DNA of 39,429 bases from positions 1 to 39,429 of IMG/VR virus record IMGVR_UViG_2529292726_000015; one strand, written 5' to 3'. The stretch comes from a virus. Lineage: Duplodnaviria > Heunggongvirae > Uroviricota > Caudoviricetes. A program made the translations under genes and the position numbers. The notes beneath the pieces are model-generated. The model ran no database searches. It saw nothing but the letters and a program-made list of their open reading frames with translations, and was not told the origin of the DNA. Below, one piece after another: positions 6,111 to 11,920 of this stretch. The stretch's first letter is position 1. Each line of letters starts with the position of its first letter.

Positions 6111-6479
6111 TCAGGCGGCTTTGATAGTCATATCATCTGAATCAAATATTCCTGATGTATCGATATCGGTAATTCTTATTCCTTCGCTACCATCCATTGG
6201 AGGCCATCCTTCCTGACCATTTCCATCATTCCAGTCGAACTCACACACAACACCATATGCATTTAAGTCGCTTGAAATTGCTATAAGCAGAGCATGTTGC
6301 GCCAGCATGATTAATACAGCATTTAATACAGAGCCGTGTTTATTGAGTCGGTATTCAGAGTCTGACCAGAAATTATTAATCTGGTGAAGTTTTTCCTCTG
6401 TCATTACGTCATGGTCGATTTCAATTTCTATTGATGCTTTCCAGTCGTAATCAATGATGTATTTTTTGATGTTTGACAT
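6111..6479 (-). CDS. Hypothetical PL-operon protein (122 aa)
   Basis: Intact ORF in the leftward early operon between N and cIII; no recognised family. Confidence 0.5.
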   Translation of the reverse strand: MSNIKKYIIDYDWKASIEIEIDHDVMTEEKLHQINNFWSDSEYRLNKHGSVLNAVLIMLAQHALLIAISSDLNAYGVVCEFDWNDGNGQEGWPPMDGSEGIRITDIDTSGIFDSDDMTIKAA

Positions 6480-6504
6480 CTATTCATATCCTCATAGATA
6501 AAAA

Positions 6505-6532
6505 ATCGCCCTCACACTGGAGGGCAAAGAAG
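6505..6532 (-). terminator. Rho-independent terminator (minus strand) within PL operon
   Basis: Minus-strand stem GCCCTC-CAGTGT-GAGGGC followed by GATTTTTTATC. Confidence 0.45.
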
Positions 6533-6629
6533 ATTTCCAATAATCAGAACAAGTCGGCTCCTGTTTAGTTACGAGCGACATTGCTCCGTGTATTCACTCG
6601 TTGGAATGAATACACAGTGCTTATTCGTA

Positions 6630-7100
6630 CTAATAAAACACCCAGTTTTCTGTTTCTTGGTTGTGTCCAAAGTTATATTCAATATCTGGTGTTGATGTAT
6701 CAATATCCTTCATCCCATCAACAAGAGTTGATACAACAGCCAAATCTTGTTTGATTCTCATTAAATGGTATTTCTTCCGGCGCAATAAACTCTCAATGGC
6801 AAGTTTCTTCGTTGGGAATGCAAAAGATCTTTCTGCATTTTTTGCTACTTTCTTAATTGCATATCTATTTCTCTTTTGTTTCCATTCCTGTAACCACTGA
6901 TTTGGTGCTGGTTTAAAATTAACAATCCAATGCGCAGGAACCAACCATGCATAATGCTCTGTCTGATGAAAAGCTATATATTGAAGTGCGAATATTTTGA
7001 TTCCATCTTCTTCAACTGTCGCCTGGAATCTCCAGAAAACAGGCATTCCATCATGTTCAGTTTCTGATTCAGGAAAAGGTACGCTCCATGATATTGTCAT
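6630..7100 (-). CDS. Hypothetical PL-operon protein (156 aa)
   Basis: Intact ORF immediately downstream of N; AT-rich; no recognised family. Confidence 0.5.
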   Translation of the reverse strand: MTISWSVPFPESETEHDGMPVFWRFQATVEEDGIKIFALQYIAFHQTEHYAWLVPAHWIVNFKPAPNQWLQEWKQKRNRYAIKKVAKNAERSFAFPTKKLAIESLLRRKKYHLMRIKQDLAVVSTLVDGMKDIDTSTPDIEYNFGHNQETENWVFY

Positions 7101-7108
7101 ATCTCACC

Positions 7109-7408
7109 TCAAATAAGTGGTTTGCTGCCTAATTTCATTTTCTGGCGACCAACACAAGTCACACCCATTTCACTGCGTGGCTTGCGGTAGTAAATACGAT
7201 TCTGTTTACTCTCGACTTCTTCTGTCTTCTTGCAGCGAAGGTTTCCGAGTGATGCTGCTTTATCTGCTCTGACGCAACCAGAGAGCTTTAGCGCAATTTT
7301 TCGCGCCAGTCGCTGCTCTTGCATTTCCTGTTCACGTTGAGCCTGTCTGCGTGCTCTGCGGCGATTTCTGGCGTTATCGTCAGCCAGATATGTAATGACT
7401 ACTGTCAT
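7109..7408 (-). CDS. N: Antitermination protein N
   Basis: Arg-rich motif DNARNRRRARRQAQ near the N-terminus; C-terminus YYRKPRSEMGVTCVGRQKMKLGSKPLI resembles lambda N (WYSKPGERGITCSGRQKIKGKSIPLI); first gene of PL operon. Confidence 0.8.
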   Translation of the reverse strand: MTVVITYLADDNARNRRRARRQAQREQEMQEQRLARKIALKLSGCVRADKAASLGNLRCKKTEEVESKQNRIYYRKPRSEMGVTCVGRQKMKLGSKPLI

Positions 7409-7719
7409 GTTGACCTCCGATGAAACAACTTTGGAATTTTTTTATTACAAAGTGGTTTCCTTCCCCGCCAATTAGACGGGGATGGAAGAGCATTTATGAG
7501 CCTTCATGGACTCTGCTCGATCAGTTCTATTTAATTAATCTCTCAATTGAATGTAAGTATTCACATAAATCCTCCTACCTCTTGTGCAGCTTTCTTGAAT
7601 ATGGTGGCGGCTGCATAACGCCTATGGAATTGACTTTGGCGGTGACGCGCCGGGTGCTTATCTTCCGGTTGCCGTCGTGCAGCTGCACTTCACGTCACCC
7701 CAAAGCCAACTACTCTTTG

Positions 7720-7762
7720 GTTCCCGCATTTCGGCGGGACAATCCCATCAATGTTAAAGAGC
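7720..7762 (-). promoter_or_regulatory. nutL (boxA + boxB hairpin)
   Basis: Minus strand reads GCTCTTTAACA (boxA-like) then GTCCCGCCGAAATGCGGGAA, near-identical to the plus-strand hairpin after cro. Confidence 0.6.
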
Positions 7763-7804
7763 CTGCCAATCTGTTCCGTTTGGCTACCAGCGTCCTGCTG
7801 ATGG

Positions 7805-7895
7805 CTTAAATTTAAGATCTCTTTAATTAATGGTCAAGAGTATTTTTGAAGAAAACTTAAATTTTCTTTCGTAACTTAAGTTTGGCTTTGATTTT
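7805..7895. promoter_or_regulatory. OL/PL operator-promoter region
   Basis: Repeated ATTTAAGA/CTTAA-type half-sites resembling P22 c2 operators, between the cI terminator and nutL. Confidence 0.5.
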
Positions 7896-7902
7896 TAAAG
7901 GA

Positions 7903-7930
7903 AATAAAAAAGGGGCGAATGCCCCCTTAT
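7903..7930 (-). terminator. Rho-independent terminator downstream of repressor gene
   Basis: Minus-strand stem AAGGGGGC-ATTC-GCCCCTT followed by a T7 run. Confidence 0.5.
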
Positions 7931-8577
7931 GGAAGGTTTGCTAGTTTTGCATCGACAACTACGCCGATGATTTTGCAGTTTCCGTTGATCTCGATCATCG
8001 GATATTGTGGGTTAAGTGGTTTTAGAAACTTCCTGCCTGCATCAATAACTAACTTCTTGAAAGTTGCCTCGTTTTCTCCTTCGAGCTTTGCAACTACCAG
8101 TTTCCCGTTACGCGGCTCTACTTCAGGATCGACGAGTATTATCATTCCTTCAGGGATACTGAGACCGGCCGGAGCCGTCATTGAGTCTCCCTTCACGTCC
8201 AACCAAAACGAATCTTCTGAACAGTCTACGGTTGTATCGTACCAGTTATCTATTGCACGCTTATGATATGGTTCTACAGCTTCCATCCAGCATCCTGCGC
8301 TCACCCAGCTAATCAGAGGGTATGACCCTCTTGGATCATGCCTACTGTGATAGGCAATGTTTGAAAGACTTTCCTCTCCTTTCATCAGATAGTCAGGGGA
8401 ACACTTCAACGCATTAGCCAGGGCGAGAAGATTCTCTCCATTTGGCTCTGTCTCAGAGCGTTCCCACTGAGATATGGCAACATTAGACACGCCGACCATC
8501 TTTCCAAGTGCGGCCTGCCTGATCTTGAGTTCTTTTCTCCGAGCGCGAATGCGCTCTCCCATCAATTGAGTTTTCAT
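7927..8577 (-). CDS. c2: Prophage repressor, P22 C2-type (HTH + LexA-like cleavage domain)
   Basis: 216 aa; MKTQLMGERIRARRKELKIRQAALGKMVGVSNVAISQWERSETEPNGENLLAL... near-identical to P22 C2 as recalled. Confidence 0.92.
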   Translation of the reverse strand: MKTQLMGERIRARRKELKIRQAALGKMVGVSNVAISQWERSETEPNGENLLALANALKCSPDYLMKGEESLSNIAYHSRHDPRGSYPLISWVSAGCWMEAVEPYHKRAIDNWYDTTVDCSEDSFWLDVKGDSMTAPAGLSIPEGMIILVDPEVEPRNGKLVVAKLEGENEATFKKLVIDAGRKFLKPLNPQYPMIEINGNCKIIGVVVDAKLANLP

Positions 8578-8657
8578 AGTTAAGACATCTTAAATAAACT
8601 TGACTTAAGATTCCTTTAGTGGATAATTTAAGTGTTCTTTAATTTCGGAGCGAGTCT
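8578..8657. promoter_or_regulatory. OR operators with divergent PRM/PR promoters
   Basis: Three roughly 18-bp partial palindromes (TAAGACATCTTAAAT, ACTTAAGATTCCTTTAGT, ATTTAAGTGTTCTTTAAT) between cI and cro. Confidence 0.7.
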
Positions 8658-8843
8658 ATGTACAAGAAAGATGTTATCGACCACTTCGGAACCCAGCGTG
8701 CTGTAGCTAAAGCGTTAGGCATTAGCGACGCAGCAGTCTCTCAGTGGAAGGAAGTCATCCCAGAGAAAGACGCCTATCGACTGGAAGTCGTTACAGCTGG
8801 CGCCCTGAAGTATCAAGAAAGCGCTTACCGCAAAGCGGCATAA
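8658..8843 (+). CDS. cro: Cro repressor
   Basis: 61 aa MYKKDVIDHFGTQRAVAKALGISDAAVSQWKEVIPEKDAYRLEVVT... matches P22 Cro. Confidence 0.9.
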   Translation: MYKKDVIDHFGTQRAVAKALGISDAAVSQWKEVIPEKDAYRLEVVTAGALKYQESAYRKAA

Positions 8844-8849
8844 GCAAAT

Positions 8850-8894
8850 TGCTCTTTAACAGTCATGGTCCTCATTCCCGCCGAAATGCGGGAA
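8850..8894 (+). promoter_or_regulatory. nutR (boxA + boxB hairpin)
   Basis: TGCTCTTTAACAG followed by TTCCCGCCGAAATGCGGGAA (7-bp stem), just after the cro stop. Confidence 0.6.
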
Positions 8895-8951
8895 TACAAC
8901 GCGCATAAGTTGATGCGCATAACTTCTTATTTGTTAAGGAAATACTTACAT

Positions 8952-9245
8952 ATGGTTCGTGCAAACAAACGCAACGAGGCTCTAAGAATCGAGAGGGCGT
9001 TGCTTAACAAAATCGCAATGCTTGGAACTGAGAAGACAGCGGAAGCTGTGGGAGTTGATAAGTCGCAGATCAGCAGGTGGAAGAGGGACTGGATTCCAAA
9101 GTTCTCAATGCTGCTTGCTGTTCTTGAATGGGGCGTCGTTGACGACGACATGGCTCGATTGGCACGACAAGTTGCTTCGATTCTCACCAATAAAAAACGC
9201 CCGGCGGCAACCGAGCGTTCTGATCAAATACAAATGGAATTTTAA
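8952..9245 (+). CDS. c1: Lysogeny establishment activator C1 (cII-like)
   Basis: MVRANKRNEALRIERALLNKIAMLGTEKTAEAVGVDKSQISRWKRDW... matches P22 C1; the ORF-track start at 8865 is an upstream extension through nutR. Confidence 0.85.
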   Translation: MVRANKRNEALRIERALLNKIAMLGTEKTAEAVGVDKSQISRWKRDWIPKFSMLLAVLEWGVVDDDMARLARQVASILTNKKRPAATERSDQIQMEF

Positions 9246-9267
9246 CAACATCCAACGAGGTAATTAT

Positions 9268-9540
9268 ATGCGAAACAAAGGCTTTAATCCACCTGATACA
9301 CACAAAGAAGCTAAGCGTTTGCGCTTCCTTCGTTCCATTGATGAAAGAACTCAAATCTCTTTTGTGAAAGTTGCCAGAACTGAGCTTCTGAAGGCTGAGG
9401 CGAGGGCGTTGCTCCCGTCTCTACCAAAAGAGGAGGGATATACGTTCATTCCAAACACATTTCTGGAAAAGCTTCTCAAAGAAGACATATCCGTAAGTCA
9501 GTTTAACGATGTTCTTAATGTCTTTCGTCAAGGCAGGTAG
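9268..9540 (+). CDS. Hypothetical protein (90 aa)
   Basis: ATG at 9268 preceded by CGAGG; the longer ORF-track frame from 9022 overlaps c1. Confidence 0.4.
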   Translation: MRNKGFNPPDTHKEAKRLRFLRSIDERTQISFVKVARTELLKAEARALLPSLPKEEGYTFIPNTFLEKLLKEDISVSQFNDVLNVFRQGR

Positions 9541-9542
9541 TT

Positions 9543-10490
9543 ATGAGCAATACAGCAAAAATCTACGATTTCAGCGCCGCACACGAGCGCAGGAGCAACA
9601 GGATGGAGAACCAGAAAACTGGTTACATTCCGTTGTACCGGAGCATTCTGAAACAGTCATGGGCGAAAGATGTTTATCTTCGCACCCTGTGGGAAAACCT
9701 TCTCCTGAATGCCGCCAGAAAGCCATACAAAGCGAATTTCAAAGGTCATGAATGGCATCTGCAACCCGGTCAACTGGTTGTGACAGCAGCTGATTTAGGT
9801 CTTCAGTTATGCGACAGACATGGCAAGCCAGCAAGCCGTGATCAGGTTGAGCGGATGCTTCAGGTTTTTGTGAAAGAGGGGATGATCTCCATTGATGGAG
9901 AGAAGCAAAAAGGTCGTGTGATCACCATCACAAATTACCATGAATACGCTCAAAAAATGGACAATTCACCCGCACATGAAGCCGCACAAACAACCGCACA
10001 TGATGCCGCACATGACGAAGCCAGCAATGGCGCGGCTTTCAGAGTACATGCCGCACATGAAAGCGCACATGAAGCCGCACAAACAACCGCACATCATGAA
10101 CAAGAAGGTATTAACAAGAATATAAATAATACCCCCCTACCCCCCAATGGGGGCGGCGATGGGCAGGTTAAACCTGAACGTCGCAAGGCAGAACGAATCG
10201 ACTACGAATCCTTCCTGAACGCCTACAACACCGAAGTCGGTGACAGACTGCCACACGCTGTTGCGGTCAACGAGAAACGCAAACGCCGCCTGAAGAAAAT
10301 CATCCCGCAACTGAAAACGCCAAACGTGGACGGTTTCAGAGCGTATGTCAGGGCGTTTGTACATCAGGCCAAGCCGTTTTACTTCGGAGACAACGACACT
10401 GGCTGGACGGCCGATTTTGATTACCTGCTGAGGGAAGATTCGTTAACGGGAGTTCGGGAAGGGAAGTTTGCAGACAGGGGGATTGCATGA
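9543..10490 (+). CDS. Replication initiator (lambda O / P22 gp18-like) containing the origin iterons
   Basis: N-terminus [10 protein letters not shown] resembles lambda O MTNTAKILNF; central repeat-encoded linker; immediately followed by the helicase gene. Confidence 0.7.
9969..10135. repeat. Origin-like iteron cluster plus flanking AT-rich segment inside the initiator gene
   Basis: About 8 copies of CCGCACA(T/A)(G/C)A within roughly 130 bp, including a 27-bp direct duplication, followed by AAGAAGGTATTAACAAGAATATAAATAAT. Confidence 0.6.
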
Positions 10491-11863: not shown

Positions 11864-11889
11864 CCATCTACATCACTGAGCTAATAACA

Positions 11890-11920
11890 GGGGCTATTTA
11901 CACAGTAGCCCTTTTTTATT
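11890..11920 (+). terminator. Rho-independent terminator after helicase gene
   Basis: Stem GGGCTA-TTTACACA-GTAGCCC followed by TTTTTTATT. Confidence 0.5.

Follow-up and report, generated by a model that had tools for sequence, protein, structure and literature searches.

The early region of the phage genome studied here raises the question of whether two nearly identical hairpins on either side of its immunity region are the N-utilization (nut) sites of an N antitermination system and, if so, to which RNA specificity that system belongs. The sequence, referred to as the window, is the whole stretch of 39,429 nucleotides (nt) covering positions 1 to 39,429 of IMG/VR virus record IMGVR_UViG_2529292726_000015 (Duplodnaviria; Heunggongvirae; Uroviricota; Caudoviricetes), and belongs to a CUS-3/HK620-like P22-type coliphage. 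An original prediction had described the hairpins as matched nutL and nutR boxB elements with a sequence unlike that of lambda or P22. We conclude, with a probability of approximately 0.9, that the hairpins serve a lambdoid N-antitermination system as its nutL and nutR sites, and that this system is of the HK620 specificity type.

The 20-nt element TTCCCGCCGAAATGCGGGAA is present as an exact copy at 8875-8894 on the plus strand and, with one mismatch, as GTCCCGCCGAAATGCGGGAA at 7721-7740 on the minus strand, so that the near-identical pair proposed for the two sides of the immunity region, in the transcribed orientation, is indeed found. No further copy was detected in the window with up to three mismatches (chance expectation 0.01), and two copies were obtained in none of 100 shuffled sequences. 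Each element is preceded on its own strand, at a distance of 12 and 14 nt, by an exact boxA GCTCTTTAAC, where a boxA-like sequence had been anticipated; these are the only two exact boxA copies in the window, and both are paired with hairpins, while the 10-mer taken alone is not rare at one mismatch (4 matches versus 2.7 expected). One-mismatch boxA matches at positions 1403 and 17846 were considered as a third nut site and rejected, as no significant hairpin follows them. The boxA of the window agrees with the lambdoid pattern of CGCUCUUA or GCUCUUUA a short spacer 5' of boxB; the boxA of rrn operons is UGCUCUUUA and that of lambda is CGCUCUUA, and NusA binds an AUU-containing spacer (PMC2724277). 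An AUU is present in both boxA-boxB spacers of the window. When folded as RNA in the transcript sense, the two 20-mers form stable hairpins of -10.5 and -10.7 kcal/mol (z scores of -3.7 and -3.0). A promoter scan of positions 6400-9700 returned two sigma-70-like promoters only, pL and pR; since these are the sole promoter-like sites, both boxA-hairpin units are carried in sense by the divergent early transcripts, one approximately 40-80 nt from the pL start (around position 7802, based on alignment to the annotated phage 21 pL start), and the other just past the cro stop codon. Position, orientation, boxA and hairpin stability, together with a neighbouring N gene whose product has its arginine-rich motif at the N-terminus, thus all conform to the geometry expected for nut sites.

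Comparison with catalogued nut sites gave a direct match. The record of phage HK620 (AF335538.1; Clark et al. 2001, J Mol Biol 311:657) marks sequences identical to those of the window as 'nutL; putative N-utilization leftward' and 'nutR; putative N-utilization rightward', and this specificity type had therefore already been recognised by annotation. The window and HK620 are identical from boxA through boxB of nutL, including the flanks, and 100% identical from boxA of nutR to cII; the window carries the HK620-type boxB CCCGC-CGAAAU-GCGGG at both nut sites together with the N motif DDNARNRRRARRQAQREQ, and the first 33 residues of HK620 N are the same as those of the window N except for one (E28 versus A). 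The two phages differ in the C-terminus of N, which is H-19B/P22-like in HK620 (...CLPNVAIYAAGYRKSKQLTAR) versus of the phage 21 type in the window, in the cassette between the nut sites, which in HK620 contains a 434/L-like cI, and in a 206-nt insertion in the N leader, which HK620 lacks. The segment from nutR to cII is 100% identical in HK620, HK630, ECP1, IME10, N7, JEP4, Gally and others, and the same boxA is marked in the records of HK630, HK140 and mEpX2. The P22-like coliphage CUS-3 (CP000711.1) shows 99% identity over the 2.3 kb surrounding the nut sites, comprising N, cI, cro, cII and the leader insertion, and its N is annotated as a putative antitermination protein; however, its nut sites are unannotated, and its cII coding sequence (CDS) is extended through nutR. 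Among 5,426 complete Escherichia coli genomes, 501 (approximately 9%) contain the nutR segment and 508 the motif-coding 5' end of N, whose product is labelled 'hypothetical protein' in these roughly 500 genomes by the Prokaryotic Genome Annotation Pipeline (PGAP) of NCBI. The nut element is consequently ordinary, widespread and already annotated (in HK620, in 2001), and what exists is an annotation gap: N goes unnamed in about 500 E. coli genomes, and the nut sites are unmarked in most phage records. A full-text literature search found no papers containing the boxB sequence of the window.

The N gene heads the pL operon and has its own Shine-Dalgarno sequence, with GGAGG upstream; its product, a small basic protein, matches phrog_271 ('anti-termination protein N-like') with an E value of 4e-36. 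Residues 34-99 are identical to phage 21 N at 61 of 66 positions (92%), versus only 6 of 33 for residues 1-33, and on the basis of this split N is a mosaic of a phage-21-type body and a different arginine-rich motif. The proposed lambda-like C-terminus is accordingly better described as phage-21-type; its resemblance to lambda is remote, with residues 63-99 aligning to lambda N residues 75-110 (PDB 6GOV chain N, antitermination complex) at an E value of 8.8e-4. The motif DDNARNRRRARRQAQREQ, located at residues ~10-27, is distinct from those of lambda, P22 and phage 21, and aligns as A-x-x-R-R-x-x-R-R with lambda and P22. New N-termini of N proteins are expected to imply new boxB specificities (epsilon34 paper, PMC2629481), and their C-termini are exchangeable (phage L paper, PMC8022706). 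The same arginine-rich motif was found joined to at least four unrelated C-termini (loci L283, L289, L206-L208 and other N loci), namely the phage-21-type ending ...SKPLI, the H-19B/P22-type ending ...YRKSKQLTAR, the mEp235-type ending ...KLYSKPPYGAY, and ...GKSIPAYYD, from which it follows that N is assembled in a modular manner. In addition, four mEp235-like loci (L217, L221, L222 and L246) carry a Nun-like gene (...RRRIARWEKRIAYALKNG...) approximately 330 nt upstream of a CVGRQK motif; after this gene, in another frame, lies a remnant of an N C-terminus (...IYYSKPRSEMGVTCVGRQKMKLGSKPLI), and a functional phage-21-type N is located elsewhere in the locus.

Phage 21 (OL657228.1; nuclear magnetic resonance (NMR) structure 1NYB) shares with the window an immunity backbone of approximately 87% identity, an identical boxA, the position of boxB and the 6-nt loop length. 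From upstream through boxA the two DNAs are 92% identical at nutL and 95% at nutR; within boxB these values drop to 40% and 35%, and over the next ~90 nt they are 76% and 45%, so identity rises again beyond boxB on the N-leader side but does not do so after nutR. The boxB hairpins of phage 21 (CUCAAC-CUAACC-GUUGAG and CACCU-CUAACC-GGGUG) and its N motif GTAKSRYKARRAELIAERR are different from those of the window: no CUAACC hairpin is found at the nut positions of the window, and only the C-terminal 66 amino acids (aa) of its N are phage-21-type. The otherwise homologous modules differ in three short pieces, namely both boxB hairpins and the initial ~33 codons of N, and these are exactly the parts expected to set RNA-binding specificity.

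The association of motif and hairpin was examined across 160 IMG/VR loci retrieved via N homologues, the motif of mEp235-like loci being assigned from tblastn match coordinates. A window-type motif was accompanied by the window boxB at both nutL and nutR in 89 of the 89 loci, many of them close relatives, in which both sites were found; all ~62 loci with the phage 21 motif had the boxB of phage 21, and no mixed combination was seen among the loci examined. Loci with a single exact match are truncated, carry a same-class variant at the other nut site, or are decayed. In the latter case (L190) the right-hand boxB is broken after CCCGCCG by unrelated DNA and N is truncated past the arginine-rich motif; this locus resembles a decayed prophage. 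More than 120 IMG/VR contigs contain the exact core CCCGCCGAAATGCGGG, with nearly all copies located behind a boxA and most forming divergent pairs at many different spacings, and the same two-nut-site geometry as in the window was found in more than 100 contigs. The DNA enclosed by the divergent boxB pairs clusters into approximately 20 groups, representing many different immunity cassettes, across which the association of nutR with the motif type is consistent without exception. The suggestion that the distinct arginine-rich motif goes with an RNA specificity of its own is therefore strengthened by these data, since the motif differs from those of lambda, P22 and phage 21 and motif and boxB types switch together. 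E. coli phage DNA also turned up in records assigned to unrelated organisms: an HK620-like N with both nut sites in a metagenome-assembled genome (MAG) named 'Segatella copri' (L290), and most of an HK620-like nutR-to-cII intergenic segment in Aeromonas phage AP1 (H52; MT713136.1, 253425-253517). Both cases are likely the result of binning or assembly contamination.

Diverged N proteins sharing the motif core [DS]DNARNRRR[AVI][RKQ]R were found in Cronobacter, other E. coli prophages, Pantoea, Erwinia and metagenomic viruses; a scan of one genome per species gave 4 loci only, and the diversity was drawn from IMG/VR. The nut sites of these relatives comprise 27 distinct boxB variants, for which the nutR variants were collected by a loop-anchored search that included mismatched stems. 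Five of the eight pairs of the 8-bp stem are changed on both sides (for example U-A to C-G, C-G to U-A, and G-C to A-U). G.U pairs occur in the transcribed sense only, which points to RNA, and not DNA, as the functional form. The loops seen are CGAAAU (152 sites), CGCAAU, CGUAAU, UGAAAU, AGAAAU, AGGAAU and AGAGAU. All 27 variants obey the rule x-GNRA-U, in which an invariant G is followed by any base, a purine, an invariant A and an invariant U, and is preceded by C, U or A; this corresponds to the GNRA signature, with either a pyrimidine.U mismatch or an A-U pair at its flanks. In nutR boxB of the Pantoea/Erwinia type, a mismatch (C.A, C.C, C.U or U.C) is kept at the third pair from the loop, while the cognate nutL is fully paired (L291 2923 and L292 2390, both on the minus strand, L097, L131, L139, L178, L185 and L196); the two nut sites may differ in this respect in a conserved way.

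How far the hairpins are unlike those of lambda and P22 was assessed by comparison with both systems. The lambda N/boxB system (PDB 1QFQ, 6GOV) shares divergent nut sites with boxA and boxB, and the two N proteins have in common an arginine-rich motif at the N-terminus and, at the C-terminus, homologous segments for binding RNA polymerase; the lambda system differs by its GAAAA/GAAGA pentaloop on a 5-bp stem, its boxA, Trp18 of lambda N, which has no counterpart in the window N, and a central region that is not alignable. A search of the window for lambda-type boxB (GCCCU-GAARA-AGGGC) gave two chance-level matches only, far from the early promoters. The P22 gp24/nut system (NC_002371; NMR structure 1A4T) shares the rrn-type boxA, and its nutR boxB ACCGC-CGACAAC-GCGGU has, in a by-eye comparison, the same CCGC-C...GCGG frame as the window boxB with a pyrimidine.pyrimidine flank and one extra loop base. 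The N-terminus of gp24 (MTVITY...NAKTRRHERR) resembles that of the window N (MTVVITY...NARNRRRARR), with 10 of 21 identities between N residues 4-21 and gp24 residues 3-23 at a marginal E value of 0.05; the His of RRHERR is an Arg in the window N, and the rest of the protein is unrelated. The P22 loop is a GACAA pentaloop that adopts a GNRA fold, with the C looped out onto an Arg and a His of the peptide (PMC12550061), whereas the window loop is without the extra base. The P22 motif GNAKTRRHERRRKLAIER and pentaloop are not those of the window, in which the P22 nutL boxB GCGCTGACAAAGCGC finds no match with up to three mismatches. The original statement thus holds in that neither nut site is of the lambda or P22 boxB type, but it was overstated, given the GNRA loop, the frame shared with P22 nutR and the weak similarity of the N-terminus to gp24.

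Two alternatives deny the hairpins a role in N binding. According to one, they are transcription terminators or attenuators of the tL0/tR0 type; they are G+C-rich stem-loops in leader or intergenic RNA, and the same 16-mer is followed in one unrelated IMG/VR context by a T-run, in a terminator-like manner. Neither copy in the window, however, is followed by a U-tract, a terminator scan called neither, and terminators do not require an x-GNRA-U loop that is conserved while the stem covaries; each copy is also at a fixed short distance from a boxA, with a boxB type that tracks the N motif type. According to the other, the repeats act as DNA, either as a pair of inverted repeats or as a palindrome bound by a protein, on the flanks of the immunity module (for instance a recombination boundary or an operator). 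The two copies do form an inverted repeat bracketing the immunity region, such boundaries are mosaic junctions in lambdoid phages, and adjacent DNA is labelled 'boundary sequence' in CUS-3; but the asymmetric loop always has the same sense relative to transcription, the G.U pairs of the stem would read as A.C mismatches on the complementary strand or would not matter in duplex DNA, and the operators of the repressor are found at other positions, around pL and pR, according to the phage 21 and HK620 annotations. We reject both readings, the terminator being highly improbable and the DNA palindrome slightly more so.

A third alternative accepts genuine nut sites but supposes an N specificity that is relaxed or overlaps with that of P22 or lambda N, making the system a minor P22-type variant and not a separate specificity. 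The loop conforms to the GNRA fold that is recognised by lambda and P22 N (PMC12550061), and the frame shared with P22 nutR, the identities with gp24 and the alignment of the arginine-rich motif with lambda and P22 point in the same direction; on the other side stand the marginal score of the gp24 similarity, the absence from the window loop of the looped-out base used in the lambda and P22 complexes, the lack of any P22- or lambda-type boxB at the nut positions, and the strict pairing of motif and boxB within ~150 loci. We regard this variant reading as unlikely, although it deserves to be taken seriously. Several observations count against nut sites of the HK620 specificity type itself. The Pfam N_peptide score of N is 20.2 bits, below the cut-off of 27.9; a permissive Rfam scan of positions 6500-10000 gave only a chance RyhB match and no matching family; and no experimental or structural study of an HK620-type N-boxB pair was found in the searchable literature, the HK620 genome paper being outside this scope. 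As nutL lies only ~300 nt from the motif-coding region, co-inheritance of the two is partly simple linkage, and because of this tight linkage only the association of nutR across different cassettes is an independent test. Many of the loci are close relatives, so that the locus counts are not independent events. Finally, 88% of the cells in the stem alignment are paired, compared with 37-60% after shifting the 3' partners by 1-3 columns, but this value is inflated by the pre-selection of variants with at least 6 of 8 pairs; the compensatory stem changes are unaffected by this selection.

In an HK620-type N/nut system, binding of N and antitermination at the boxB of the window would, by homology and co-variation, proceed along lambdoid lines. 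The transcripts from pL and pR each carry boxA (GCUCUUUAAC), followed 12-14 nt later by the boxB hairpin. The host NusB-NusE pair would bind the rrn-type boxA, a dependence on Nus factors suggested by homology with lambda, and the N-terminal arginine-rich motif would bind the hairpin with its 6-8 bp G+C-rich stem and hexaloop C-GAAA-U. Free lambda N is intrinsically disordered. The middle and C-terminal parts of the window N, which are of the phage 21 type, would, as in lambda, engage NusA and RNA polymerase, and the modified polymerase is predicted to read through the tL1 candidate, the tR1 region and the tR2-like site. Delayed-early genes would be expressed as a result of this read-through, and the tR2-like site would have to be passed in order to reach the nin and Q genes. 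Regarding the RNA itself, the most likely fold of the loop is a true GNRA tetraloop that stacks on the C.U flanking pair (A-U in some relatives), a proposal derived from the loop pattern and the published structures (PMC12550061). The same source describes the phage 21 loop C-UAAC-C as a GNRA-like turn on a C.C flanking pair, which is the layout proposed here for C-GAAA-U. Going further, the HK620-type pair can tentatively be viewed, at somewhat less than even odds, as a fourth N-boxB recognition mode that is orthogonal to those of lambda, P22 and phage 21, in which a P22/lambda-like arginine-rich helix, lacking a partner for a looped-out base, would read a canonical GNRA tetraloop whose platform is pyrimidine.U (or A-U), the 3' U being invariant.

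The features of the early region are listed in the table below. The tR1 region is annotated in HK620 directly after nutR. A strong intrinsic terminator at 7909-7928 on the minus strand is located directly downstream of cI and upstream of pL, at a position that matches the post-cI terminators annotated in phage 21 and HK620 (tIMM). In the CUS-3 record, cII is a 126-aa CDS (8865-9245 on the plus strand; L001 3271-3651) whose ATG lies upstream of the right-hand boxB and which reads through nutR. The Pfam Phage_CII model covers the 97-aa open reading frame (ORF) starting at 8952 from end to end, and the deposited CUS-3 start is therefore probably wrong.

Regulatory elements and genes of the early region (positions in the window; strand + or -)
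Feature	Position	Strand	Description
boxA-L	7753-7762	-	GCTCTTTAAC, rrn-consensus type
boxB-L hairpin	7721-7740	-	stem 7739-7734 with 7727-7722 (6 bp); loop CGAAAU 7733-7728; identical to HK620 nutL
boxA-R	8851-8860	+	GCTCTTTAAC
boxB-R hairpin	8874-8895	+	stem 8874-8881 with 8888-8895 (8 bp); loop CGAAAU 8882-8887; identical to HK620 nutR
N gene	7109-7408	-	99 aa
pL promoter	7837-7809	-	TTGACC, 17 nt, TAAATT; base-for-base alignment with annotated phage 21 pL
pR promoter	8600-8627	+	TTGACT, 16 nt, GATAAT
cI-type repressor	7927-8577	-	HTH_3 and Peptidase_S24; between both nut sites
cro	8658-8843	+	P22_Cro family
cII	8952-9245	+	Phage_CII family, end-to-end match
O-like replication gene	starts 9543	+	
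DnaB-like replication gene	starts 10487	+	
tL1 candidate, intrinsic-terminator-like	6506-6527	-	pL operon, downstream of N and ORF 6630-7100
tR1 region	8896-8951	+	between nutR and cII; hairpin GCGCAT-AAGTTG-ATGCGC at 8901-8918
tR2-like strong intrinsic-terminator-like site	11889-11913	+	just after helicase gene
Long hairpin in N leader	7633-7708	-	between boxB-L and N; conserved with phage 21 and HK620
206-nt insertion in N leader	7423-7628	-	relative to phage 21 and HK620

The 408-nt N leader as a whole folds with a z score of -4.5. Its long hairpin resembles, by position, the RNase III-processed N leader of lambda, and is possibly an element for RNase III-type processing or autoregulation. 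In the 206-nt insertion, an AGGAGG Shine-Dalgarno sequence is followed by a start-stop mini-ORF, ATG-TGA (7576-7561), and a strong hairpin (7457-7487) sits just before the ribosome-binding site of N; the insertion may modulate N translation. The insertion is also present in CUS-3 (99.5% identity), where it is labelled 'bsq5 boundary sequence', and in HK140 (72% identity).

The early regulatory region of the window needs no new explanation, since it is a standard N/nut antitermination switch. What this analysis adds is the x-GNRA-U loop rule, derived here, and a clean module swap between phage 21 and HK620, a natural experiment in which one backbone carries different N motifs and boxB hairpins and specificity is confined to ~33 codons plus two 20-nt hairpins. 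The loop rule also suggests the N-boxB pair as a candidate orthogonal RNA-tethering tool. If the fourth recognition mode is true, it would add a natural orthogonal peptide-RNA tether, and it would mean that the specificity of an otherwise unchanged phage 21-type module was re-set by swapping these three short pieces.

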